DNA from: an uncultured virus (IMG/VR IMGVR_UViG_3300023179_000076)
Lineage: Duplodnaviria; Heunggongvirae; Uroviricota; Caudoviricetes
Length of the DNA: 64,000 nt
Virus record (IMG/VR): IMGVR_UViG_3300023179_000076
Location: 1 to 64,000 of that record
Strand: one strand, 5' to 3'
Position 1 is the first letter of the stretch. Every line of letters starts with the position of its first letter. The translations under genes were made by a program, and so were the position numbers. The notes under the pieces are model-generated. The model saw nothing but the letters and a program-made list of their open reading frames with translations. It made no database searches and was not told the DNA's origin. This document shows, in pieces, positions 3,612-17,002 of the stretch.

Positions 3612-4614
3612 AGAAGATATAATCAAAAATTTTGGAGATGATATTATATTGTCTGGTAACTCACTGGTAGAAAAAAAGATATTAACTATTCCAATTAGTC
3701 CAGCTCTGGATATAGTTCTAGGTGGTGGAATACCAGAAGGTAGTTTTGTGATATTTACAGGACAACCTAAATGTGGTAAAACTTTGTCATCATTAGACTT
3801 TGCAACCACCGCACAAAAACCAGAATATCAAGGAGATCTAAAGAACCCTAGAGAAGTATACTACCTAAATATCGAAGGTAGACTAAAACAACGAGATCTA
3901 CTTGGAATAAAAGGATTAGATCTGAGCAGATTTCATATTATAGGATCCCAACAAGGTAAAATCTTACACGCCGAAGAATATTTACAAATAGCAGAAAGAA
4001 TTATAAATGAAATTCCCGGCTCTATAGTAATCATAGACTCGTATTCTGCACTATGTACAGAAGCCGAAATTACTAGTGATATGGACAAAATGCAGAGAGC
4101 AGATGGAGCAAAGTTATTAGCCAAATTCTGTAGAAAAGTTTCTAACGTTATTCCTGTTAATAAAAATATTGTGATCGGTATCACCCATTTGATGGGTAAT
4201 CCGACAGGATATGGAGCAGAGTTTAAGGAGAAGAGCGGTCAGGGTATCGCATATCAAACCGATATTAAACTACGAGCAAAAAGTTCTAAGCCATGGTCTT
4301 TAGGAGCAGACGATACTCAGATAGGCCAAGAGGTTGAATGGCAAGTTATTTGTTCCGCTCTCGGTCCTCCGGGAGGAGTAGCAAAAAGCTTTATTCGTTA
4401 TAATGAGGGCATAGATAAGCTCACAGAGCTTGTCAACTTGGCGTCAGATGTCGGAGTTATAAATAAAGGTGGAGCATGGTATACCATCAAAACCAGTAAA
4501 GACTCTCATAAATTTCAAGGGGCAGAAAAAACTAGAATATTTTTAATGGAAAATCCAGAAATAGCAAAAGAGGTCGAAGATTCTGTTAAAAGCTTACTGG
4601 GTATTAAAAAGTAA
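3601..4614 (+). CDS. recA: RecA/UvsX-like recombinase
   Basis: ALDIVLGGGIPEG, Walker A GQPKCGKT, YLNIEGR, Walker B IVIIDSYSAL, C-terminal GAWY and FQG. Confidence 0.9.
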   Translation: MSLKEDIIKNFGDDIILSGNSLVEKKILTIPISPALDIVLGGGIPEGSFVIFTGQPKCGKTLSSLDFATTAQKPEYQGDLKNPREVYYLNIEGRLKQRDLLGIKGLDLSRFHIIGSQQGKILHAEEYLQIAERIINEIPGSIVIIDSYSALCTEAEITSDMDKMQRADGAKLLAKFCRKVSNVIPVNKNIVIGITHLMGNPTGYGAEFKEKSGQGIAYQTDIKLRAKSSKPWSLGADDTQIGQEVEWQVICSALGPPGGVAKSFIRYNEGIDKLTELVNLASDVGVINKGGAWYTIKTSKDSHKFQGAEKTRIFLMENPEIAKEVEDSVKSLLGIKK

Positions 4615-5033
4615 TGAATATAACTAATTTGGATGGAGGAGTTGTTTCTTGGGCCTTGACAGGCTACGTCTCAAAGGGTAAAATACAAAATAAGTCATCG
4701 TACCATTTGCAAGCAAGAAACCTATTGATTTCTCTTCATCCGACACTACAAATATTAGAAGAGGTTTTGGTACCTATAAGAAAAGGACAAATAGCATATT
4801 TAGATTTCTATCTACCACTATTAAAATGGTGTGTTGAGGTTCATGGAGAACAACACTATAAGTATGTACCATATTATCATGGCAATATGATGAGTTTTCT
4901 TAAAGCTCAAAAAAAAGATAGAGAAAAATCAGAATGGTGCAATATTAATAATATAAGATATATAGAACTACCATACCATGAAAATATAGACCAATGGACT
5001 CAAAGAATAAATTATGAACAACAAATCATCTAA
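4614..5033 (+). CDS. PD-(D/E)XK/Vsr-like endonuclease
   Basis: YLDFYLP...VEVHGEQHY...KDREKSEWC..NNIRYIELPY. Confidence 0.75.
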   Translation: MNITNLDGGVVSWALTGYVSKGKIQNKSSYHLQARNLLISLHPTLQILEEVLVPIRKGQIAYLDFYLPLLKWCVEVHGEQHYKYVPYYHGNMMSFLKAQKKDREKSEWCNINNIRYIELPYHENIDQWTQRINYEQQII

Positions 5034-5899: not shown

Positions 5900-7366
5900 A
5901 TGATACTTTGTGATCCTGCCGCAGAAAGAGCGGTATTGTCTGGAATATGCAAATATGGTGAAAATGCATATTTAGATATTGCTGATATTATACAACCATC
6001 AACATTTACTGTTGATAGTAATGTAATGATATATCAAGTAATAAAAGAGATATGTGAAAAAGACCATAGTCCCTCTATAGATATAGCATCAATCCTATCT
6101 GTTGCTCAATCATTAAATTTTGGTCATATTTTATCTCAAAAAAATGAGACTCAACATTTAAAAGCTATTATAGATTTTCCTGTTAATCTAGAAAATGTCA
6201 GAAAATTTGCAGCTAAAATTAGAAAACTACAAATAGCTAGATTACTTAGAGATCAATTAGAAGAAGCAAAAGAAAAATTATTGGATATCACCGGAGCCGA
6301 ACCAATATCGTCGATTATAGGATTGGCAGAAGATAGTATCTTCAATTTCTCGACCCTACTAAATGATACTGATAATAATCCTGTTTGTATAGCTAATATC
6401 GTTGATGATTATATTAATAATATCAAAGAAAATCCAATTGATCAAGTCGGTATATCTACAGGATTTCACGTTTATGATAATGCTATAGGTGGTGGTCTTA
6501 GAAAAGGATCAGTAAGTATTATAGCCGCAAGACCAAAAACTGGTAAGACTCTGCTAGCAGATAATATTGGTTTACACATAGCAAAAAATGTCAAAGTGCC
6601 AGTATTAAATATGGACACCGAGATGAGCACAGACGATCATCTTAATAGGGTTTTGGCCATGATGACAGAAATAGAGATTTCAAGTATAGAAACCGGTAAA
6701 GCATTTGAGTCTCCGGATAAAAATAATAGATTACAAACGGCTCAAAAAGAACTTAAAGATGTTAGACTGTATTACAAGTCAATCGCTGGTAAACCATTTG
6801 AAGAACAATTGGCTATCATGAGAAGATGGCTTGTTAAGGAGGTTGGATTACACCCAGATGGAACAGCCAAAGACTGCGTTATTGTTTATGATTATCTAAA
6901 ACTAATGGATAGTGCAGGAATATCTCAGGATATGAAAGAGTATCAGGTTTTAGGTTTTATGATGACAAGCTTACATAATTTTGCTGTCAGATATAAAGTT
7001 CCTATTCTTGGTTTTATACAATTAAATAGGGATGGTATAACAAAAGAAACCACAGATACCGCCAGCGGTTCTGATCGTATAATATGGTTATGTAGCAATT
7101 TCACTATTTTCAAAAGAAAAAGCGACGAAGAGATCGCCGAAGACGGACCCACTAACGGTAATAGAAAACTTGTTCCTATTATTAGTAGACACGGTGGAGG
7201 TCTAGACGACAATGACTATATTAATTGTCACATGAAGGGCTGGTGTGCAAAAATTGAAGAAGGTAAGACAAGATTGGAATTAGTAAATAATAATACTAAC
7301 ACAGACAAAGGATTTATTGTTAATGACGAGAACAATGATGACGATCAAGAAATCCCGTTCGTATAA
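5900..7366 (+). CDS. dnaB: Replicative DNA helicase DnaB
   Basis: N-terminal AAERAVL, GISTGF..YD..IGGGLRKG, Walker A AARPKTGKT, MDTEMS, VYDYLKLM, FIQLNR, ISRHG. Confidence 0.93.
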   Translation: MILCDPAAERAVLSGICKYGENAYLDIADIIQPSTFTVDSNVMIYQVIKEICEKDHSPSIDIASILSVAQSLNFGHILSQKNETQHLKAIIDFPVNLENVRKFAAKIRKLQIARLLRDQLEEAKEKLLDITGAEPISSIIGLAEDSIFNFSTLLNDTDNNPVCIANIVDDYINNIKENPIDQVGISTGFHVYDNAIGGGLRKGSVSIIAARPKTGKTLLADNIGLHIAKNVKVPVLNMDTEMSTDDHLNRVLAMMTEIEISSIETGKAFESPDKNNRLQTAQKELKDVRLYYKSIAGKPFEEQLAIMRRWLVKEVGLHPDGTAKDCVIVYDYLKLMDSAGISQDMKEYQVLGFMMTSLHNFAVRYKVPILGFIQLNRDGITKETTDTASGSDRIIWLCSNFTIFKRKSDEEIAEDGPTNGNRKLVPIISRHGGGLDDNDYINCHMKGWCAKIEEGKTRLELVNNNTNTDKGFIVNDENNDDDQEIPFV

Positions 7367-8492
7367 TCAGCCACAACTTAAAGTACTATCTGATTATTTA
7401 TGTGAAGATATAGATAATCTACTAGACAATTTAAATGTTGGTGAGTATAAAACTTTTGATCGCATGATAGCCATGAGATGTCCAATTCATGGCGGAGATA
7501 ATAATTCTGCTTGTAATTTATATTACAAAGGAGACTCATATAGAGGTAACTGGAAATGCAGAACACATCAATGTGAAGAAACCTTTAAAGGGTCTATTAT
7601 AGGATTTATAAGAGGTTGTTTATCTAAACAAAATGGTTGGACAGGACCTGGGGATCCAACCGTTTCTTTTAACGACGCTGTAGAATACGCCATTAATTTT
7701 ACTAAAAAGAATCCTAGTCAAATAAAAGTTAGTAAAAAAGAAGTAGAAAAAAATAATTTTGTAAATATTGTTAATAATATACAAACAGATATTAGATCTG
7801 TTGATGATACTCCTAAAATCACAAGAGATAAAATAGTAAAGAATTTAAAAATTCCATCAGATTATTTTATTAGCAGAGGATTTTCTTCTGAAATACTTAT
7901 CAAATATGATGTTGGTGAATGTTTAAGTTCCGAAAAAGAAATGGGCGACAGAGCTGTTGTACCAGTATACGACGACACTCACGAGAATATGGTCGGTTGT
8001 TCTGGCAGAAGTATTTTTACTCAATGCTCTAAATGTAAAAGTTATCATAATTTAACAAAAGATTGTCCAAATTCAGATTATTTATGGCAATATTCTAAGT
8101 GGAAACATAATAAGGGATTTAAAACACAAGAGTATCTATATAATCTATGGTATGCAAAAGACTATATACAACAGAATAAAAATGTTGTGCTGGTCGAAAG
8201 CCCAGGAAATGTTTGGAGATTAGAAGAGGCCGGAATTCATAATAGCGTAGCCCTATTCGGCTCTGTATTACAAGAAAAACAAAAATTGTTATTGGATATT
8301 TCTGGAGCAATGAGTATATATATACTTATGGACAATGACGACGCTGGCAAAAGAGCTGCTCAAAAAATCTATGATAAATGTCATAAAACATATAATGTTT
8401 TCTATATTGATATTGATCACAGCGATGTTGCTGATATGTCAGTAGCTGAAGTAAAAGAGATTATTTTACCACAATTAAAAGATAAATACTAA
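7317..8492 (+). CDS. dnaG: DNA primase DnaG (true start possibly ATG 7335)
   Basis: CHC2 zinc finger CPIHGGDN...WKCRTHQC, YFISRGF, RAVVPVYD, VGCSGR, YLYN, TOPRIM LVESPG and MDNDDAG. Confidence 0.88.
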   Translation: MLMTRTMMTIKKSRSYNQPQLKVLSDYLCEDIDNLLDNLNVGEYKTFDRMIAMRCPIHGGDNNSACNLYYKGDSYRGNWKCRTHQCEETFKGSIIGFIRGCLSKQNGWTGPGDPTVSFNDAVEYAINFTKKNPSQIKVSKKEVEKNNFVNIVNNIQTDIRSVDDTPKITRDKIVKNLKIPSDYFISRGFSSEILIKYDVGECLSSEKEMGDRAVVPVYDDTHENMVGCSGRSIFTQCSKCKSYHNLTKDCPNSDYLWQYSKWKHNKGFKTQEYLYNLWYAKDYIQQNKNVVLVESPGNVWRLEEAGIHNSVALFGSVLQEKQKLLLDISGAMSIYILMDNDDAGKRAAQKIYDKCHKTYNVFYIDIDHSDVADMSVAEVKEIILPQLKDKY

Positions 8493-9085
8493 TGAATACT
8501 AAAATAATAGCATTTTCTGGCCGTAAACAGTCTGGCAAAACTATTTGTTCAGAATTTTTAAAAGGATTATTATTATCTAATGGATATTCTGATGTTGAAA
8601 TATATAACTTTGCAGATCCATTGAAAGAAGACATATGCATGAACATGTTTGGATTATCATACGTTCAGTGTTATGGCGAAGATCATAATAAGAATGAACT
8701 AGTTGATGCCTATTGGGAAGATAAGCAACTAACAGCTAGAGATTTAATGCAATTAATAGGCACCGACTTATTTAGAAAATTAAATAATAATATTTGGGTA
8801 AATGCTCTTATCAATAAAATTAAAAAGAGTAAACTTCAAGTTGTTATAGTTTCTGATTGTAGATTTCCTAATGAAATAGAAGCTATAAAAAATAATGGAG
8901 GAATAGTATTTCGACTAAATAGAAATCCACACAAATCAGAACATATTAGCGAATCAATATTGGATGCTTGCAGATATGATTGGAATAATTTTAATGCTAT
9001 CATTAATAATGAACATATGACAGTTAGAGAGCAATATGATAAACTTAAAAAACTTATGTTACATTTTAATGTACTACCACAATAA
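8492..9085 (+). CDS. Deoxynucleoside monophosphate kinase
   Basis: IAFSGRKQSGKT, NFADPLK, RDLMQLIGTDLFR, VSDCRFPNE, HISE. Confidence 0.9.
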   Translation: MNTKIIAFSGRKQSGKTICSEFLKGLLLSNGYSDVEIYNFADPLKEDICMNMFGLSYVQCYGEDHNKNELVDAYWEDKQLTARDLMQLIGTDLFRKLNNNIWVNALINKIKKSKLQVVIVSDCRFPNEIEAIKNNGGIVFRLNRNPHKSEHISESILDACRYDWNNFNAIINNEHMTVREQYDKLKKLMLHFNVLPQ

Positions 9086-9094
9086 TAGGATATC

Positions 9095-11083
9095 ATGATT
9101 ATAACTTATTTCCGTAGTTCGTCTTATAATGCCCATTCTATGTGCGAACAACAATTTTTTTTTGAATATGTACTAGGATGGAGGGGCCCAAGTGGACAAA
9201 AGGCGGATAAAGGAACAATAGTCCATAAAGTTTTAGAAATTCTTGCCATGATCAAACAAGGTCAGCAAGATAAATTATCTCATATAAATGATGACGAATT
9301 CTTAGGTCTTATAGATATAAATGACTATAGTCTTAATACCATAATAGAAAAAGTATACAAGCATTATAGTACCGCTAATAGTCATCATACTTGGACTCTA
9401 AAAGATTATAAGGACTGCTATAATTGGGTTTACAAGGCTATAGAATTTAATGGCGGTATGTTTGATCCTAGAAATCGCACCATTCTTAGACCAGAACAAC
9501 ACTTTGATTTGGTAATAGAAAAACCATGGGCTAAATACGAGTATAATATTAATAATCAAAAACTAGATGGATATTTGGGCTTAAAAGGCACTATAGATCT
9601 TATAACTTTGGCTAATGATAATACTATTGAGGTCATAGATTGGAAAGGATTGCCATTAGATACAAAATTACCTACTCTTGACGGATGGACAACAATTGCA
9701 GATATAAATGTGGGATGTAATGTCTTTGATCAATACGGTAATATATGTCGCGTTGTTGGAAAATCAAAAGTCAAAACAAAAAAATGTTTCAGAGTAACTT
9801 TTGATGACAAAACATCGGTAATTTGTGACGATGAGCATTTATGGAAATTATCTAATGGTGAAACGGTATCTATACAGGATCTAGCTATTGGCGATACTAT
9901 TAATGTGACAAAACCATTAAAATGTAATGAACAATCCCTACCAATAGATCCTTATCTATTAGGAGTCTGGTTAGGAGACGGAAGAAATAGAGGCTGCGAG
10001 ATTAGTGGCAATGATACTGAAATTTTTGAAGAAATACAAGCAAGAGGTTATGAGCTAGGAAAAATTCAAAATGATAAAAGATCAAAAAATAAGACAGTAT
10101 CGATCCTAAATGTGACAAAAATACTAAAATCTTTAAATCTATTGAATAATAAACATATACCAAAAATTTATTTGAGAGCATCTTTTCAACAAAGGCTAGA
10201 CTTACTAAGGGGTTTGATGGATACAGACGGAAATGTAAATCCAATTAGAAAACAAACTGTGTTTACTTCTTGTAATAAAAAACTATCCGACGATGTTAAA
10301 GACCTACTTTTAACCCTTGGGCAAAGACCGAATCAAGCGTGTATTAAAAGAGATACAAATTACAAAAAAAACGTAATCATATATCCTATTTCGTTTCGTC
10401 CAATTGACATTAATCCTTTTCTATTGAACAGGAAAAAAGAACTTGTGGATGTAAATTGGGGATCTGGAAGATCTAGGGTTAGACGAGTTTCTAAAATAGA
10501 AGAATCGATTATACAAAAAACTCAATGCATTTCCGTAGACAGTCCAGACAATACTTATCTGTGTACAGAAAATTATATTCCAACACATAATACTGGACGA
10601 AGACTAGATTGGGCAACAGGTCAAGAAAAAACCCAAGAAAAGTTAGAGAAAGATCCACAACTTAAAATTTATCACTATGCTATTAAAAAATTATATCCGC
10701 ATATTGAAAATGTAATTTTTTCTATCTACTTTATTAATGATGGTGGTCCTTTTTCTATGGTATTTCACGATAGTGATTTAATAGATACAGAGAATATGCT
10801 AAGAGAAAAATTTGATATTATTAAGAAAACAAAACGACCTAAACTTAATAAAACATGGATGTGTAATAAATTATGTCATTTTGGTAAAACCACTTTTGAG
10901 AATACTAATATAGAACCTTTGCAGGAGTATAGAGATGGACAAATATGTCAAAAAGGATCTGTGATGACAAAGTGCGAACAAGTCAAGCACGACCTTGAAC
11001 TTTACGGGATCGATGCTACAATGAGTATGTACAAACACCCGAATCATTCTTTTGGATCTTACAAAGCACCAGGATCAGTATGA
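9095..11083 (+). CDS. PD-(D/E)XK (RecB/Cas4-like) nuclease containing an intein
   Basis: RSSSYN..CEQQ, KGTIVHKVLE, LKGTIDLI, IDWK|TG split by the intein, QLKIY, C-terminal Cys cluster CNKLCHF. Confidence 0.88.
   Translation: MIITYFRSSSYNAHSMCEQQFFFEYVLGWRGPSGQKADKGTIVHKVLEILAMIKQGQQDKLSHINDDEFLGLIDINDYSLNTIIEKVYKHYSTANSHHTWTLKDYKDCYNWVYKAIEFNGGMFDPRNRTILRPEQHFDLVIEKPWAKYEYNINNQKLDGYLGLKGTIDLITLANDNTIEVIDWKGLPLDTKLPTLDGWTTIADINVGCNVFDQYGNICRVVGKSKVKTKKCFRVTFDDKTSVICDDEHLWKLSNGETVSIQDLAIGDTINVTKPLKCNEQSLPIDPYLLGVWLGDGRNRGCEISGNDTEIFEEIQARGYELGKIQNDKRSKNKTVSILNVTKILKSLNLLNNKHIPKIYLRASFQQRLDLLRGLMDTDGNVNPIRKQTVFTSCNKKLSDDVKDLLLTLGQRPNQACIKRDTNYKKNVIIYPISFRPIDINPFLLNRKKELVDVNWGSGRSRVRRVSKIEESIIQKTQCISVDSPDNTYLCTENYIPTHNTGRRLDWATGQEKTQEKLEKDPQLKIYHYAIKKLYPHIENVIFSIYFINDGGPFSMVFHDSDLIDTENMLREKFDIIKKTKRPKLNKTWMCNKLCHFGKTTFENTNIEPLQEYRDGQICQKGSVMTKCEQVKHDLELYGIDATMSMYKHPNHSFGSYKAPGSV
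9647..10591 (+). mobile_element. Class 3 intein (315 aa) with LAGLIDADG endonuclease
   Basis: Block A GLPLDTKLPTLDGW, block B CDDEHLW, endonuclease motifs YLLGVWLGDG and LLRGLMDTDG, block F TQCISVD, block G NYIPTHN|T. Confidence 0.92.
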
Positions 11084-12378
11084 CCTATTCTGTTCTTCAT
11101 TGTCATTCGCATTTTAGTCTTTTGGATGGTCTTAATCGTCCAGAACAAATAGCCAATAGATGTTCTAAATTAGGCATTAATTCTTGTGCCTTAACCGATC
11201 ACGGTAACATCGCCGGTTCTGTACAATTCTATCAGAAAATGCGAAATAAAAATATAAAACCAATTCTTGGCTGTGAATTATATATATGTGAAGATGATCC
11301 GAGCATACAAACAAAAGAAAATGCTTCATTATCACATTTTTTGGTATTGGCGAAGAATTTGCAAGGATGGAAAACATTAATAAAGATTGTTTCCGAATCC
11401 AACAGGCCCGATTACTTTTATCATAAGCCACGTTTAAGTCTGGCGAAATTAGCAGAAATACTAGACGGTAATATTATAGGTATCTGTGGACATTTGGGAT
11501 CAACATTAGCAGATAAGATATTATGCGACGAATCCAAAGCTATAGATAATGGATTATCTTTTGTAGATTATATGAAAACTATATTTGGTAATGATAATTT
11601 TTTTCTAGAGACACAACTATTTGATCAAGCATATCTAAAACAACAAACATATTTAACAGATACAATAAGAAGAATCTCTCAATTAAGTAAAACAAAAGCG
11701 GTATGCACACCGGATGCTCATTATTGCGAACAAGATGATGCTATAGATCAAAGAATATTACTCTGTAATAATCTTAAAACAACATTATCAGATATAAATA
11801 CTAAGATGCTTCATAATCAATCTGTACCTATGGAGTGTTTCTTTAAAAGCGATAAATACTACATTCTGTCTCCAGAAGAAATGAAAACTCTTCATAATGA
11901 CGAAGAGATAGAAAACACTTTGTTTGTGGATAGTCTAATAGAAAATTTTGATATACTATCGCCACCTAAATTGCCTAAATTCGAATGTCCCGAAGGATTC
12001 TCTTCGGATGAATATTTAAGAGAATTATGTAGAAAAGGTTGGAAAAATAGAATTATACCGAATATTGACAAATCACAACAGGATATTTATGTTGATAGAA
12101 TAAAATATGAACTACAGGTTTTGCAAAATGCTGGGCTTAGTAGTTATTTTCTAATTGTTCAAGACATACTAAGATATGTTAAAAATAATAATTGGTTAGC
12201 AGGACCAGGACGAGGAAGCGCAGCCGGATGCTTGGTTTCTTATTTAATAGGTATTACAGATATAGACCCTATTAAACACGAATTACTATTTGAAAGATTT
12301 TATTCCGATGGCAGGAATGTAAAAGAACACATATCTTTTCCGGAATTTTCTATACAAACATTTAAAAATGGTGTATAA
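11080..12378 (+). CDS. dnaE: DNA polymerase III alpha, fragment 1 (PHP domain and first part of palm)
   Basis: LHCHSHFSLLDG, ALTDHG, PILGCE, DAHY, GPGRGSAAGCLVSYLIGITDIDP, LLFERF; stops with TAA before PDID. Confidence 0.93.
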   Translation: MTYSVLHCHSHFSLLDGLNRPEQIANRCSKLGINSCALTDHGNIAGSVQFYQKMRNKNIKPILGCELYICEDDPSIQTKENASLSHFLVLAKNLQGWKTLIKIVSESNRPDYFYHKPRLSLAKLAEILDGNIIGICGHLGSTLADKILCDESKAIDNGLSFVDYMKTIFGNDNFFLETQLFDQAYLKQQTYLTDTIRRISQLSKTKAVCTPDAHYCEQDDAIDQRILLCNNLKTTLSDINTKMLHNQSVPMECFFKSDKYYILSPEEMKTLHNDEEIENTLFVDSLIENFDILSPPKLPKFECPEGFSSDEYLRELCRKGWKNRIIPNIDKSQQDIYVDRIKYELQVLQNAGLSSYFLIVQDILRYVKNNNWLAGPGRGSAAGCLVSYLIGITDIDPIKHELLFERFYSDGRNVKEHISFPEFSIQTFKNGV

Positions 12379-12396
12379 ACAGTATAATTCCGGAGG
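12337..12396 (+). promoter_or_regulatory. Predicted RNA hairpin sequestering the endonuclease Shine-Dalgarno sequence
   Basis: TTTCCGGAATT (12337-47) pairs with AATTCCGGAGG (12386-96, two G-U pairs); TATACA pairs with TGTATA and CATT with AATG. The SD GGAGG at 12392-96 precedes ATG 12401. Confidence 0.65.
12370..12389 (+). promoter_or_regulatory. Putative phage promoter motif GGTGTATA-N5-TATAATT
   Basis: GGTGTATA AACAG TATAATT; same architecture recurs at 46242-46261 (-). Confidence 0.55.
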
Positions 12397-12400
12397 CAAT

Positions 12401-13219
12401 ATGAAAGCTAAAATAAAAGACTATAAAAATAAGAGCTATAATTTACTTACTATAATAACTTTAGTTTCGGATAGTAAAGGAGAAACAATTGCTAAGTGTA
12501 AATGTAAATGCGGCAATGTCTGTTATAAGAAACTATCTATGATAAAGATTAACCATGTTAAAAGTTGTGGTTGTTTAGCAAAATCAACTAGATTTACTAA
12601 AAATAGTAAAAAAAAATTATTAAATGATTTCTCTAAATTAGATGCCGCATCAGCTTATTGGCTTGGTTTTATTTTTGGCGATGGAAATATTAGTGATAGT
12701 AATAAGCTACAATTATGCTTGGGATCAGAATCAAAAAAACATTTGATTAAATTTTCTAAATTTTTAATAGGCTCTAATATAGTAAAAGACTACGATAATA
12801 GGTGTACATTTCAATTTACTAGTGATATTTTAGCAAATAATATATCAAAATATGGTATTATACCAAGAAAAACATGGCATAGTACTTTAAAATTACCGTC
12901 GGATCAATTATTATGGCCAGATTTTATAAGAGGATATTGGGATGCTGATGGATGGGTTAGTATAAAAAAACAAACCAATAAAAATAAAGTCTACACTGGT
13001 TACAACATAGGTATATGTTCATATCTTCCAGAAAATTTGGAAACAGTATCCAAAGCCTTACCTGTAAAATATAAAAAACCAACAAAAATAAAAAATAGAG
13101 ACTTGTATCAGTTAATATACCAAAACAAGAGTGAAATTAAAGTTATAGCAAAATATTTACTAAACAATCATTTATATATAGACTACAAATGGAAAAAAAT
13201 TCTACACTTACTAGACTAG
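12401..13219 (+). CDS. Free-standing LAGLIDADG homing endonuclease with Cys-rich N-terminal domain (ORF track start 12368)
   Basis: AYWLGFIFGDG and FIRGYWDADG dodecapeptide motifs; N-terminal KCKCKCGN...KSCGC; GGAGG before ATG 12401. Confidence 0.88.
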   Translation: MKAKIKDYKNKSYNLLTIITLVSDSKGETIAKCKCKCGNVCYKKLSMIKINHVKSCGCLAKSTRFTKNSKKKLLNDFSKLDAASAYWLGFIFGDGNISDSNKLQLCLGSESKKHLIKFSKFLIGSNIVKDYDNRCTFQFTSDILANNISKYGIIPRKTWHSTLKLPSDQLLWPDFIRGYWDADGWVSIKKQTNKNKVYTGYNIGICSYLPENLETVSKALPVKYKKPTKIKNRDLYQLIYQNKSEIKVIAKYLLNNHLYIDYKWKKILHLLD

Positions 13220-14073
13220 TACATGAGATTAAAAGCCAGCCTATAATCGAAAGGTTAGAACAAGAAAAAAATAATAGATTTCTTGAACATGAATGCTCTA
13301 TAGTTCTTTCGGCTCCAGAAAATATATCATACTATAATCATATAATAGTAAATAAAAATATTTTATCCGAAAACACTATTAATAGTTATATAATGTGGAT
13401 ATATGGTATTGTCGATCAGCTTGATAATACTCGTCCAATACAAAGCATTCCAGCCAGAATACAAATGCCAGATATCGATATAGATATCCCAATAGATAAA
13501 CGAGAACAAGTATTAGAATATATAAAAAGTAAATATGGATATGGCAAAGTATCACAAATGATTACTTTTAATACTATGAAAGGTAGAGGGGCGTTAAAAG
13601 ATGTGCTAAGAGTATATGGTAATATATCTTTCGAAGAAATGAATTCTATTACCAAATTTATTCCTGACGAAGCCAAAATAGCCGACGAACTTCAAGAGAT
13701 GAAAGAAGATACCGGAGAAGCCTCGATTATTAGATGGGCTTTAGAGAATAACACAGACAAACTGAAAGAATGGTGCTATATAGCAGAAGATGGTTCGTTG
13801 GCTGGTCCATTATCGAAAAGATTTGAACAGGCCATAAGGCTTGAAGGAACAAAATCCAACCAAAGCAAACACGCTGCTGGTGTAATAATAGGTACCGAAG
13901 ATCTTGCATCTCTGTGTCCTATGGTCTATGATAATAGAAATGATCAGCTGATAGCAGGCATGGAGATGAACGATCTAGAGAGTTTGGGTTTAATTAAATT
14001 TGATATATTGGGTATAGCTTATTTAGACAAAATCATGTCTGTATCAGAATACTTAAAAAATGGAGAACTATAA
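13189..14073 (+). CDS. dnaE: DNA polymerase III alpha, fragment 2 (catalytic palm/thumb) with a 92-aa N-terminal extension
   Basis: MPDIDID (starts 13465), KVSQMITF, ALKDVLR, SKHAAGVII, GLIKFDILG; all three catalytic Asp are present. Confidence 0.92.
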   Translation: MEKNSTLTRLVHEIKSQPIIERLEQEKNNRFLEHECSIVLSAPENISYYNHIIVNKNILSENTINSYIMWIYGIVDQLDNTRPIQSIPARIQMPDIDIDIPIDKREQVLEYIKSKYGYGKVSQMITFNTMKGRGALKDVLRVYGNISFEEMNSITKFIPDEAKIADELQEMKEDTGEASIIRWALENNTDKLKEWCYIAEDGSLAGPLSKRFEQAIRLEGTKSNQSKHAAGVIIGTEDLASLCPMVYDNRNDQLIAGMEMNDLESLGLIKFDILGIAYLDKIMSVSEYLKNGEL

Positions 14074-14255
14074 TGTTAACAAAAACATTAGATCAAGTTG
14101 CTGTAGGCGAAAATTTTAAAGTTAATAATGTAGAGTATACTAAGATTCAAGAGGTTAGAGTAAGTTGTTGCAGAAGCGCTAATTGTCACGTTGTTGCAGA
14201 TAGTAATCAAAGGACTTTTTTCCCAGGAAACACAGTAGTGGAGACAAATGGCTAA
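14073..14255 (+). CDS. Small hypothetical protein
   Basis: 60-aa ORF coupled by overlaps to dnaE fragment 2 and dnaQ. Confidence 0.6.
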   Translation: MLTKTLDQVAVGENFKVNNVEYTKIQEVRVSCCRSANCHVVADSNQRTFFPGNTVVETNG

Positions 14256-14949
14256 TTTACAAAAAATTTGTGTGTTTGATTTAGAAACGGACGGGGCTAA
14301 TCCCGACCTTTGTAGCCCCGTTCAAATTGCTTCTCTGATAATAGATCCATATAAATTAGAAATTATCAAAGATTCAGAATTTAATATTAATCTAAAACCA
14401 TCCATATTAGATGAAAAACCTGACTATATATATGATGATAGTGATGTTCTTGATTTCCATGCCAAGGTTAGAGGATGTGAAAAAACTAAAATATTAGAGG
14501 ATTGGAAATCTTATCAAAATCAGGATAATGGATGGAAAATGTTTGTGTCTTATTTAGAGAAATATCACATAAGATCAGATAAAAAATCTTGTTTTACAGC
14601 GCCAATAGCCGCTGGATACAACATAAATAGATTCGATCTTAGAATTATAGAAAGACTAAGTACTAAATACAATAATGTCAATAAGGAGGGAAGAACATCT
14701 CTTTTTTATCCACGAGACGTTATAGATTTAATGAATGTGATATTTTATTGGTTCGAAGGAAATAACGAACTAAAAAACTATACATTAGATAATGTTAGAG
14801 AATATTTAGGTCTTGGCAATAGTGGATCTCATGACGCGCTAAACGATGTAAGAGCCACCGCTGATATTCTCATTAGATTTATGAAACTTCATAGAAATCT
14901 TGGTAATAAGGTTAAATTCAAAAACGCGTTCGCCGCAGCTTCTGCATAA
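14248..14949 (+). CDS. dnaQ: DEDDh 3'-5' exonuclease (DnaQ/epsilon-like)
   Basis: ExoI VFDLETDG, ExoII GYNINRFD, ExoIII HDALND. Confidence 0.88.
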   Translation: MANLQKICVFDLETDGANPDLCSPVQIASLIIDPYKLEIIKDSEFNINLKPSILDEKPDYIYDDSDVLDFHAKVRGCEKTKILEDWKSYQNQDNGWKMFVSYLEKYHIRSDKKSCFTAPIAAGYNINRFDLRIIERLSTKYNNVNKEGRTSLFYPRDVIDLMNVIFYWFEGNNELKNYTLDNVREYLGLGNSGSHDALNDVRATADILIRFMKLHRNLGNKVKFKNAFAAASA

Positions 14950-14954
14950 TATTT

Positions 14955-16568
14955 ATGAATCATCACTATACGTTTGATTGTGGTTGTAAATTTAAGGTAT
15001 TGGACTATACCCAGGATGGTATTCCTAGAATAGATTTCGATGGCAAACTAGAAAATCTAAATCTAGAATGTTCCAAAACATGGGATATGATAGCACAAGG
15101 AAACACAAAAGGCGTTTTCCAATTAGAGTCCAGACTAGGCTCTAGCATGTCCAAAAAACTTAAACCACAGAATATAGAGCAGCTTTCTGCATTGATTAGT
15201 ATTATGCGACCAGGATCGTTAGAGGCATATAGGGAAGGCAAAAGTATTAGTGATCATTATATAGACAAAAAAAATGGTCAAGAAGAATTAGACTATTTTC
15301 ATCCTTCTCTTGAGCCTTCATTAAAATCGACCTATGGCGAGATGATTTACCAAGAACAGGCCATGCAAATCGCTCAGGCGGTGGCTGGATTCGATCTTCA
15401 AGAGGCCGATATGCTTCGTAAGGCTATAGGCAAAAAGAAACCAGAAGAAATGGCCAAAATTAAAGTTAAATTCAAAGATGGTGTTAAAAAACTTAATATT
15501 GTGTCGGAAGATGAGAGCGAAGAAATTTTTGGTTGGATAGAAAAAAGTCAAAGATATAGTTTTAATAAGAGTCATGCTGTAAGCTATGCTATGAATGCAT
15601 ACTCATCAGCATATGCTAAAGCGCACTTCGCGAAAGTGTTTTTTGCATCATATTTAAAGTTCGCAAAAGACAAGATGGATCCACAAAAAGAAATCAAGGA
15701 ATTAATCAGGAACGCCACAGAAATGGATGTTACTGTTTGCGTTCCAGATTTAAGAAAACTTAATAAGCATTTTACCATAAATGATGATAAAATTTATTTT
15801 GGCTTAACAGATATAAAAGGGGTTGGTTATTCGGTATATGATAAGATCATAGAGATAATCAAAAATATTGATCTTAATTCCATATCATGGTATGGCTGTT
15901 TAGTAAAATTACTCAATAAAATAAACTCTACAGCCGCTAAGGCGCTAATATCATGTGGTTCTCTTGATTATTATCATATGTCACGCACACAAATGTTATT
16001 TGAATATGATATAATATCGGAATTAACATCTAGAGAATTAGATCTTTTAGATATAAACCAAAAACATCTAGGACAAGTTTTAGAGAATCTGCTAACTAAC
16101 AGCAAGATTAATACCAAACGAAAAACTAATATACAAAATTTAATTAAGCTATATGAAAATCCACCATACTCATTAAACGATAAAATAGAATGGTTATCTG
16201 ATACAGAAAATGCGTTGCTTGGAGCATCCATTACCTGTTTTAAAATAGATTCATACGATATCAGCATGACAAACTGTGATTGCAAAATGTTTAAACATAC
16301 CAATAATGTTAAAAATATTATTTTGGCTGGTGAAATTAGTAATATAAATTTTGTTAAAACAAAGAATGGGAAAAATGCTGGTGCAGAAATGGCTTTTGTT
16401 ACAATAGAGGACCAATATGCGTCCTTAGACTCGGTCATCTTATTTCCTGATCAATTGTCTAAATACCGAAACTATCTGTTTGAAGGAAATGTACTAATAT
16501 TTCTAGGTAATAAGAGTCCTAAAAAAGATTCTTTTATAGTAGAAAAATGTTTTATACCAAGGTCTTGA
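14955..16568 (+). CDS. dnaE: DNA polymerase III alpha, fragment 3 (fingers, HhH, OB fold)
   Basis: TKGVFQLES, MRPG, IYQEQ, EADMLRKAIGKK, YSFNKSHAVSYA, FGLTDIKGVG, EMAFVTIED. Confidence 0.93.
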   Translation: MNHHYTFDCGCKFKVLDYTQDGIPRIDFDGKLENLNLECSKTWDMIAQGNTKGVFQLESRLGSSMSKKLKPQNIEQLSALISIMRPGSLEAYREGKSISDHYIDKKNGQEELDYFHPSLEPSLKSTYGEMIYQEQAMQIAQAVAGFDLQEADMLRKAIGKKKPEEMAKIKVKFKDGVKKLNIVSEDESEEIFGWIEKSQRYSFNKSHAVSYAMNAYSSAYAKAHFAKVFFASYLKFAKDKMDPQKEIKELIRNATEMDVTVCVPDLRKLNKHFTINDDKIYFGLTDIKGVGYSVYDKIIEIIKNIDLNSISWYGCLVKLLNKINSTAAKALISCGSLDYYHMSRTQMLFEYDIISELTSRELDLLDINQKHLGQVLENLLTNSKINTKRKTNIQNLIKLYENPPYSLNDKIEWLSDTENALLGASITCFKIDSYDISMTNCDCKMFKHTNNVKNIILAGEISNINFVKTKNGKNAGAEMAFVTIEDQYASLDSVILFPDQLSKYRNYLFEGNVLIFLGNKSPKKDSFIVEKCFIPRS

Positions 16569-16592
16569 CAAAACGCTGCCGCTTGGTATAAT
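16565..16592 (+). promoter_or_regulatory. Consensus sigma70 promoter for ssb
   Basis: TTGACA-16 nt-TATAAT with extended -10 TG; SD AGGAG at 16621-25, ATG at 16634. Confidence 0.8.
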
Positions 16593-16633
16593 ATTGTATA
16601 GTTGTAGCGTTTTTACTTTTAGGAGTTTTGAAA

Positions 16634-17002
16634 ATGAATATTACATTGTTGAAGGGTAATCTTGCACGAGATCCTGAGTTAAGAGTTGTTAATCCAAATG
16701 GAAAACAAACTAGTGTGGTAAATTTTACCATTGCTGTTAATAGGGATTATGTAAAATCGAATGGAGAAAAAGATCGAATTACATCTTTTATTAATTGCGA
16801 AGCATGGGATAGCGGAGCCGAAACTATTGCTGAGTCACTAAAGAAAGGTGATCTGGTTATGGTTGAGGGGTCTCTTAGAAACGATACATGGGAAAAGGAT
16901 GGAGTTAAGCATAGTAGTCTAAAGGTTAGAGTTAATAACTTTTCAAAGATTACTAAGCTTAGTAGGTCGAAAACTGAAGAATCAGAAACAGTTGCTTTCT
17001 GA
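16634..17002 (+). CDS. ssb: Single-stranded DNA-binding protein
   Basis: MN...LKGNLARDPELR, VVNFTIAVNR, FINCEAW, LKKGDLVMVEGSLR; short acidic tail ending in F. Confidence 0.93.
   Translation: MNITLLKGNLARDPELRVVNPNGKQTSVVNFTIAVNRDYVKSNGEKDRITSFINCEAWDSGAETIAESLKKGDLVMVEGSLRNDTWEKDGVKHSSLKVRVNNFSKITKLSRSKTEESETVAF

Follow-up and report, generated by a model that had tools for sequence, protein, structure and literature searches.

How can a homing endonuclease gene sit at the active site of an essential polymerase with neither an intron nor an intein around it? The question is raised by the dnaE locus of an uncultured virus of the Caudoviricetes, which we analysed in a stretch of 64,000 nucleotides (nt) corresponding to positions 1 to 64,000 of IMG/VR record IMGVR_UViG_3300023179_000076 (hereafter the window). 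In this stretch the gene for the C-family polymerase DnaE (Pol III alpha) is divided next to the strand bearing the two catalytic aspartates (MPDIDID), and a free-standing LAGLIDADG endonuclease gene lies between the two pieces. We consider it fairly probable that dnaE was split by a mobile cassette with a non-splicing adaptor, consisting of a tail on the first fragment and an extension on the second, and that the halves assemble non-covalently. Should the adaptor also prove to be a dedicated, heritable part of that mobile unit, which we hold more tentatively, homing endonucleases would have a third way, besides introns and inteins, of residing harmlessly at an essential active site.

A dnaE gene divided beside its active site

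The features of the locus on which the argument rests are as follows.

11080-12378, + strand: dnaE fragment 1, whole open reading frame (ORF), 432 amino acids (aa), terminus LLFERFYSDGRNVKEHISFPEFSIQTFKNGV before the stop
11080-12336, + strand: native part of fragment 1, PHP domain and N-terminal palm, up to FERFYSDGRNVKEHIS at residue 419 (Pfam PHP, E = 1.4e-34; DNA_pol3_alpha profile positions 1-99)
12337-12378, + strand: cassette-encoded tail of fragment 1 (FPEFSIQTFKNGV), 13 residues (420-432), and TAA stop
12401-13219, + strand: free-standing LAGLIDADG homing endonuclease gene, 272 aa from an ATG behind GGAGG (Pfam LAGLIDADG_3)
13189-14073, + strand: dnaE fragment 2, whole ORF, 294 aa
13189-13464, + strand: extension of fragment 2, residues 1-92 before M93 of MPDIDID, a conserved domain, predicted to be helical, joined to MPDIDID by a linker
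13465-14073, + strand: native part of fragment 2, catalytic MPDIDID strand, remaining palm and thumb (DNA_pol3_alpha profile positions 96-260; Taq match)
14955-16568, + strand: dnaE fragment 3, fingers, HhH and OB fold (Pfam DNA_pol3_finger, 4.6e-48; HHH_6, 6.9e-10)
12319-13464, + strand: whole cassette, 1146 nt where the uninterrupted allele L011 has 18 nt (codons TKDRIS), from blastn against L011
12019-12318, no strand: left co-conversion tract, divergent flank imported with the cassette (mismatch density against L011)
13465-13800, no strand: right co-conversion tract (mismatch density against L011)

The domain set of a C-family polymerase (PHP, DNA_pol3_alpha, DNA_pol3_finger and HHH_6 in Pfam) is spread across three ORFs. 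The DNA_pol3_alpha profile is cleanly divided, with its positions 1-99 on residues 311-413 of fragment 1 and its positions 96-260 on residues 88-275 of fragment 2, and from residue 88 onward fragment 2 matched residues 456-626 of Taq Pol III alpha (E = 2e-23). The catalytic parts are divided as well: the GRGS motif and its helices are encoded on fragment 1, and the DxD strand on fragment 2. An earlier note, made from the sequence of the window without database searches, had described the two fragments and the endonuclease ORF between them, and its coordinates and quoted sequences were correct; the 92 extra residues that it reported ahead of MPDIDID are present on fragment 2.

The endonuclease matched Pfam LAGLIDADG_3 above the cut-off (3.1e-8), and two motifs, YWLGFIFGDGN and FIRGYWDADGW, were recognized by eye. 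Its ORF has a first in-frame ATG at 12368; the likelier start is the ATG at 12401, with GGAGG at 12392-12396. From the stop of fragment 1 to this likely start there are 22 nt, and the endonuclease gene overlaps fragment 2 by 31 nt. As the earlier note had pointed out, such a gap and overlap leave nearly no non-coding space for an intron core.

In a scan of viral contigs, relatives of fragment 2 were encoded by 394 stretches, from which the best 80 loci were retained. Among these best 80, the site was uninterrupted in 68, nine (L001-L009) carried the extension, and three (L025, L026 and L029) had a split intein elsewhere. The uninterrupted relatives read LLFERF-YNAGRNTKDRIS-MPDIDID, and the putative endonuclease target of the L011 type includes the coding sequence for GRNTKDRISMPDIDID. 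The native part of fragment 1 is collinear with these relatives as far as RIS, and the 68 uninterrupted loci have no tail.

Recent transfer of the cassette

The uninterrupted allele L011 is from nearly the same phage as the window. Its blastn alignment covers window positions 7328-12318 at 98.3% and 13465-14678 at 98.8% identity, with nothing alignable between. Counted per 100 nt from the junction outward, the mismatches to L011 number 21, 19, 5, 2 and 3 and then 0 in five bins on the left flank, and 4, 4, 4 and 1 and then 0 on the right flank. This gradient beside the insert has the form of a co-conversion tract, produced by recombinational import from a diverged donor, as in endonuclease homing.

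The cassette is a real arrangement and not an assembly chimera, because single contigs from two other lake metagenomes span positions 11900-13800. At least 80% of the sampled words of this stretch were present in 20 DNA runs from 20 lake or freshwater metagenome studies, two of them possibly the source of the window DNA, and four runs were compared against the stretch. Among the 24 runs listed, no RNA run containing the stretch appeared. The spanning contigs, of 10,139 nt in run X3 and 5,306 nt in run X8, cover all of it with 7-8 differences; they rule out the assembly artefact that the earlier note had kept in view. In run X9, a cassette-bearing contig and an insert-less contig occur together in one lake sample. 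In the insert-less contig, 226 other letters separate 12110 from 13465, exactly the length expected (208 + 18 nt) of an allele that lacks the insert and has a diverged left flank.

The distribution of the extension was followed on a FastTree tree. The tree comprised 188 unique cores, each starting at MPDID and 205 residues long; they form a non-random sample, and identical cores were merged. At least 14 state changes are needed to account for the 42 extension-bearing tips, where 500 label shuffles required 38.4 on average and never fewer than 33, and the window is placed among uninterrupted alleles. The number of changes, well below that of the shuffles, suggests that the extension state is partly inherited, yet was gained or lost many times. 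The co-conversion gradient, the allele polymorphism and the scattered phylogenetic distribution are consistent with homing. Judged by its sequence, 12319-13464 is a homing cassette that was recently transferred by recombination. Its endonuclease would be active on the cassette-free allele, and homing looks to be ongoing.

Coding and constraint of the tail and extension

Locus L009 has the same arrangement as the window, and its polymerase parts are 65-78% identical in protein sequence. The tail region (25 codons after LLFERF) and the extension (87 codons) are equal in length in the two loci and align without gaps, the extension at 49% identity. The proportions of non-synonymous and synonymous changes (pN/pS) and the ratio of the corresponding rates (omega) between the two loci were as follows; the omega values are rough, coming from a single pair in which synonymous divergence (dS) is saturated (1.1-1.8).

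25 codons after LLFERF, tail included: pN/pS 0.25/0.58, omega about 0.28
Extension, all: pN/pS 0.37/0.66, omega about 0.32
Extension, residues 42-87: omega about 0.12
Extension, residues 1-41: omega about 0.59
Rest of fragment 2: omega 0.09
Endonuclease: omega 0.21

The frame of fragment 2 is open from 13141, giving 108 codons ahead of MPDIDID in DNA of about 27% guanine-cytosine (GC) content. This open frame and the codon pattern of the substitutions argue for translation of the tail and the extension, and by the same pattern the two are under purifying selection. One motif, h-(S/N/P)-F-x-E-h-x-h-..-(F/Y), recurs in the tails of all tail-bearing forms, across lineages. In charge, the tails are slightly acidic; the extensions lie close to neutrality (median -0.8, range -6.5 to 9.5, n = 32).

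A conserved family in several genomic contexts

A profile (A1) built from four extensions was searched against 1.84 billion representatives at E <= 1e-3. It returned 31 proteins (seven at E <= 1e-10), one of which (P0020) was a low-complexity false match, leaving 30 clusters; a word-based search with extension residues 1-90 returned four clusters only. Of these 30 family members, 18 are of 281-304 aa, like fragment 2, nine are of 533-1171 aa and carry the extension at the head of a gene that also encodes the fingers and C-terminal domains, two are fragments, and one (P0018, 689 aa) is fused, with the N-terminal part, tail, extension and palm in one chain and no endonuclease.

Eight positions (E35, Y48, Y49, N62, N65, S66, Y67 and V75) are invariant in 21 of 21 aligned extensions. 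The characteristic motif is NSYIMW...(K/I)VD.(I/L)D; its longer form NTINSYIMWIY.IVD is invariant in four of four close sequences, and NSYIMW itself is kept in all the contexts described below. A Pfam scan of 21 extensions at E <= 10 gave nothing consistent: 20 unrelated families were hit, the commonest in three of the 21 members. A search of the ESM Atlas with extension residues 1-88 was uninformative, returning short DnaE fragments only with scores of at most 0.90, and blastn against GenBank phages found nothing beyond two short matches to Bacillus phage dnaE. The extension is an unannotated, independent conserved family. The case is a warning for annotation, in that fragments of such a dnaE are readily called pseudogenes and no named family covers the extension.

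In five lineages (the window group, L009, L090, L092/L109/L110/L112 and L107), the gap between the halves is occupied by homologous LAGLIDADG genes. The endonucleases in the gaps of L009, L090, L092 and L107 are 32-56% identical to that of the window (E <= 1e-40), and in all five lineages fragment 2 starts 13-34 nt inside the end of the endonuclease gene. Other contexts are without an endonuclease at this place. In L115 (750-1208), a deoxycytidine monophosphate (dCMP)/cytidine deaminase gene (Pfam, 2.7e-21) is located between the tail-bearing and the extension-bearing halves. In L093/L094/L113/L114 and in L106/L108, unrelated genes are found upstream of the extension-bearing gene. In G001 and G002 (the records from which L094 and L093 come), about 10 kb and 7.6 kb separate this gene from that of fragment 1, which is on the same strand, and the unlinked fragment 1 genes end in the same kind of tail, HLSFDEYPFIDEF. 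L104 has no upstream sequence. Finally, forms fused in frame and without an endonuclease were found in L091 (which is P0018), L095 and P0036, the last being 60% identical to P0018 and present on 23 contigs. The site thus occurs in four natural states: uninterrupted, split with an endonuclease, split and unlinked, and fused.

Proposed assembly of the two halves

We propose that a cassette consisting of a 13-residue tail with its stop, a LAGLIDADG endonuclease gene and a helical extension of 87-92 residues homed into dnaE between the codons for RIS and those for MPDIDID. No splicing would take place, and fragment 1 with its tail and fragment 2 with its extension would be made as separate polypeptides. 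The two would rebuild one nucleotidyltransferase fold, or palm, non-covalently, together with the natively separate fragment 3. The tail would complete the helical extension or dock onto it, forming a small extra domain that bridges the break, covalently continuous in the fused forms and non-covalent in the split forms. Such a domain may be what allows dnaE to tolerate the insertion, probably because it keeps the halves together or enables them to fold. The gene products most likely work as separate polypeptides; their non-covalent assembly, the adaptor role of the tail and extension and the activity of the endonuclease we infer.

The complex of fragments 1 and 2 was predicted with ESMFold2 from alignments of 29 and 41 rows in three runs. 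The complex score was 0.91 in all three runs, against 0.00 for the best control, with at least 97% contact agreement between runs and a partner predicted local distance difference test (pLDDT) of at least 86; in calibration, 116 of 157 solved complexes came up to this mark, as did 2 of 215 mismatched pairs. The predicted confident interface includes tail-region residues 407-423, 425, 428-429 and 432 and extension residues 35-66, alongside canonical contacts. An AlphaFold2 model of P0018, the fused homologue, places the tail and extension, at low confidence, in a single helical insert that follows the FERF helix and precedes the catalytic strand. Five helices are predicted for the extension in this model and in that of fragment 2 alone, again at low confidence. 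Foldseek with the P0018 model returned only Pol III alpha and PHP proteins, with Pol III alpha structures at E = 8e-43.

A more far-reaching version of the proposal, which we hold tentatively and regard as somewhat less probable than the proposal above, is that the tail and extension are a dedicated heritable adaptor, mobile as one unit with the LAGLIDADG endonuclease and spread among many aquatic phage lineages. Such an adaptor would outlive the loss of the endonuclease as an in-frame insertion and would have let the halves drift apart, and its helical domain may be a very diverged copy of the palm helices.

Several points weigh against the adaptor proposal. The passing complex score reflects, for the most part, likeness to solved single-chain DnaE structures and says little about the tail and extension. 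AlphaFold2 on fragment 2 alone, with a shallow alignment, gave a mean pLDDT of 47, which is unusable, and in the P0018 model (113 rows) the core exceeded a pLDDT of 90 and the insert reached 40-59, leaving the fold and position of the adaptor uncertain. The omega values carry the limits of a single saturated pair. Opposite-charge pairing of the tail and extension, as proposed for phage Aeh1, was not seen. The fused and unlinked forms keep the domain without an endonuclease, and a function of its own unrelated to bridging is possible. The window record is about 53% complete, and a second dnaE may exist elsewhere in the genome.

Alternative explanations

The alternative that survives best, which we nevertheless regard as unlikely, is that the tail and extension represent an ancient insertion domain, specific to certain lineages of phage DnaE and with a job of its own (e.g. 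binding a replisome partner). The endonuclease would merely have nested in it, and the domain would be no adaptor for the break. The retention of the domain without an endonuclease in the fused P0018, P0036 and L095, and the conservation of NSYIMW across all contexts, would fit such a domain. However, in the window lineage the domain and the endonuclease arrived as one block of 1146 nt with co-converted flanks, 68 of the 80 close relatives work without the domain, and the tree implies at least 14 state changes.

The earlier note had offered a different origin. About 90 codons would have been duplicated around the insertion, each copy decaying in a complementary manner, and the two dead copies would fold together as a pseudo-palm that clamps a domain-swapped heterodimer. 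Some likeness exists: by eye, the succession of two helices, a loop and a further helix in the extension, together with its EL.VI, G and S-h-h-x-aromatic-L motifs, recalls the segment before the cut, the sole long collinear hhalign alignment (50 columns) is to the segment adjoining the cut, and FPEFSI of the tail resembles MPDIDI in the window lineage. Profile tests speak otherwise. The 33-sequence extension family compared with DnaE alignments gave P = 0.45 (close family), 0.37 (N part, diverse alignment) and 0.13 (palm-N only), so that the parallel drawn between the extension and DRIKYEL...GITDID of fragment 1 is no better than chance; an unrelated C-terminal segment scored better (P = 0.073). 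In sliding windows, the adjacent palm ranked 7 of 55 in global and 11 of 55 in local mode. HMMER aligned the two in a register other than that of the earlier note, with a score that 13 of 2000 shuffles also reached. The extension is, besides, an independent family that is also found fused in frame and on unlinked genes.

Of the proposed match between HISFPEFSI and RIQMPDIDI, HIS is native and not a duplicate, and what stands is FPEFSI against MPDIDI, identical at two of six positions. The proline of the tail (FPE) is not kept in other lineages, which have FDE, FQE, FSE or FGE, and the significant hidden Markov model (HMM) score of the tail comes mostly from YSDGRNVKEHIS, the native continuation of the gene. 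No DNA repeats linking the two cassette junctions were found. A 12-nt direct repeat, AGA(C/A)TACAAATG, occurs at 13180-13191 and 13456-13467, ending at the start codon of fragment 2 and the Met codon of MPDIDID and bracketing the extension exactly; it was taken as chance, being not kept in L009, L090, L092, L107 and L115 (6-10 of 24 identical). We do not accept the duplication model, because the profile tests are non-significant, HIS is native and the junctions share no repeat. Lack of profile similarity to DnaE had been named in advance as counting against it, and we regard the duplication and the pseudo-palm as clearly improbable. A remote structural likeness of the extension to the palm is possible. 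Of the built-in dimerisation module that the earlier note envisaged, the adaptor aspect holds up, in that selection and the predicted interface make the tail and extension look like one; its derivation from the palm finds no backing in the profile tests.

Very improbable, in our view, is a split intein of atypical build, its N part short and its C part long, that would ligate the halves by protein trans-splicing. The sizes (about 13-25 and about 87 residues) recall atypical split inteins, classic split inteins with free-standing endonucleases occur in the same gene of the relatives L025, L026 and L029 (at GRG/S), and the neighbouring nuclease gene holds an intein. Against this, no intein or Hint family of Pfam matched either fragment at E <= 0.1, in agreement with the absence of intein blocks stated by the earlier note. 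The +1 residue before (M/L)PDID is not a conserved nucleophile (the window has Q, and other sequences have S, I, N, Y, E, A or T), and a terminal HN or Asn is missing. The extension is predicted to be helical, whereas HINT is an all-beta fold. The total of about 105 residues is, to our knowledge, below that of known mini-inteins. A fractured gene with a split intein was rejected on the missing Hint hit, the variable +1 residue, the missing HN and the predicted helices.

An intron, of group I or another kind, that carries the endonuclease ORF is hardly credible; the messenger RNA (mRNA) would be spliced, and the tail and extension would be intron sequence that happens to be open. Group I introns are frequent in phage polymerase genes, and a frame-preserving pair of junctions can be found by eye, with U as the last base of the 5' exon and the 3' splice site behind a G. 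An Rfam scan of 11000-17000 at E <= 1, however, gave no matches, and 108 codons are open upstream of MPDIDID at the low GC content given above. Substitutions are distributed as in coding sequence, pN being lower than pS, insertions or deletions are absent, and the extension is also found on genes 7.6-10 kb from fragment 1 and within continuous ORFs. A group I intron was accordingly rejected, having no ribozyme core detectable by covariance model (Rfam) and flanks that evolve as codons. The earlier note's statement that the endonuclease stands free beside the DnaE active site without intron or intein signatures was thus borne out in Rfam and Pfam. Translational bypass of 1.1 kb is not credible.

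Comparison with known systems

The nrdA-a / mobE / nrdA-b arrangement of phage Aeh1 was reportedly described as 'genes in pieces' by Friedrich in 2007. The earlier note's comparison of the dnaE locus with this system is apt. In both, a free-standing homing endonuclease gene divides an essential enzyme gene at a functionally critical site, and both fragments carry unique terminal sequences that derive from the insertion and are absent from contiguous homologues. RNA or protein splicing is absent from the Aeh1 system and probably also from the dnaE locus, where no intron or intein signature was found and unlinked halves occur. In split NrdA, activity requires tails that originated in the mobE insertion, and these were proposed as a general antidote to fragmentation (Crona 2010, PMC3045599); further background on split phage genes is given in a review (Edgell et al. 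2010, PMC2988022). Together, the logic of Aeh1 and the sequence evidence suggest genes in pieces with tail adaptors, in which a conserved and widespread domain takes part here: both an endonuclease between the fragments and insertion-borne additions are found.

The differences are also clear. The endonuclease is of the LAGLIDADG rather than the HNH family, and the host gene is dnaE rather than nrdA. One of the two putative adaptors is a conserved domain of about 87 residues with 30 clusters, whereas that of Aeh1 is a short lineage-specific peptide. The dnaE cassette has a fresh co-conversion tract and allele polymorphism, and its module is found in further settings, namely as an in-frame fusion, on unlinked genes and with a different gene between the halves. 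Unlike in Aeh1, there is no opposite-charge pattern, and the adaptor function proposed here is drawn from sequence and model. With a conserved adaptor family of at least 30 clusters, four natural states and alleles coexisting in a lake, the dnaE cassette may serve as a second independent system, with more comparative power, for the possibly general claim that Crona et al. drew from a single phage, namely that sequence introduced by a mobile endonuclease can mend the break it makes. It bears on gene fission, on the harmlessness of selfish elements and possibly on the design of self-assembling split polymerases.

Fractured genes, in which split intein halves accompany a free-standing endonuclease, have been described from aquatic phage metagenomes, with DnaE among the hosts (Dassa et al. 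2009, PMC2677866). The layout of fragment, endonuclease gene and fragment, the aquatic phage habitat and the host protein are shared with the window. In contrast, the window has no HINT motifs, splice-junction residues or intein Pfam match, and its additions are predicted to be helical, so that ligation is not expected. Arrangements of the intein type exist among the relatives. L025, L026 and L029 (about 3900-4800) have a split intein at GRG/SAAG, with an N-intein end, a free-standing ORF and a C-intein ending in GVHN/S. L109 (102-395) has both the GRG/S split intein and the tail/endonuclease/extension cassette, leaving a middle piece of about 50 native residues.

Other phage replication genes are split by, or lie split beside, free-standing endonuclease genes, namely the T4 topoisomerase genes 39/60 with mobA and gene 43A/43B of Aeromonas phage 25 with a seg-like gene, and the split products of phage 25 co-purify and are active, according to the review (PMC2988022). 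Tail-like extensions were noted on gp39 and gp60 in the NrdA paper (Crona 2010, PMC3045599). The endonuclease families and sites differ from those of the dnaE cassette, and for neither case is a conserved family of adaptor domains described. In relation to mini-inteins and ORF-less introns, the fused P0018, P0036 and L095 look like a cassette without its endonuclease left in frame; the difference is that the cassette remnant stays in the RNA and protein, as a palm insertion of about 100 residues. In the literature, we found no paper on this DnaE arrangement, as judged by titles and abstracts only, which is not proof of absence.

Neighbouring genes and other inserts

Three further genes of the window flank the fragments described above.

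9095-11083, + strand: PD-(D/E)XK nuclease gene with an intein (ORF reading)
14073-14255, + strand: 60-aa ORF between fragment 2 and the exonuclease gene
14248-14949, + strand: DnaQ-like 3'-5' exonuclease gene, between fragments 2 and 3 (Pfam RNase_T, 4.3e-9)

The exonuclease gene belongs to the native layout and is not part of the cassette. It has the same position in all seven related loci examined (L010, L011, L012, L017, L025, L009 and L076), whether or not the cassette is present. Apart from the cassette, dnaE is natively two genes in the phage group of the window, with a palm/thumb gene followed by the DnaQ-like exonuclease gene and then by a fingers/HhH/OB gene. In other lineages (P0006/L090, P0014, P0031 and others) the palm/thumb and fingers/HhH/OB parts are a single gene. 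The 60-aa ORF, which matched no Pfam family, is kept in L010 and L011.

The PHP domain of the window reads LHCHSHFS. The first HxH of this domain is missing in L009 and in 22 of the uninterrupted loci tested (L040, L045, L053, L063, L066-L068 and others): 19 of the 22 read, for example, SESHYSLLDG, and in the remaining three the open frame begins too late to tell.

The upstream PD-(D/E)XK nuclease has 662 aa, compared with 347-358 aa in L012, L025 and L076. Its intein contains a LAGLIDADG domain (Pfam LAGLIDADG_3, 9.4e-7) and, by eye, starts at GLPLDTKLPT and ends at IPTHN/T; its first residue may not be Cys or Ser. In the long extension-bearing DnaE proteins (P0012, P0014, P0016, P0021, P0031 and P0034), at least one further intein-like insert was seen by eye in the fingers region, e.g. 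from CISGDT to HNS, and dnaE is in this sense a hot spot for mobile elements.

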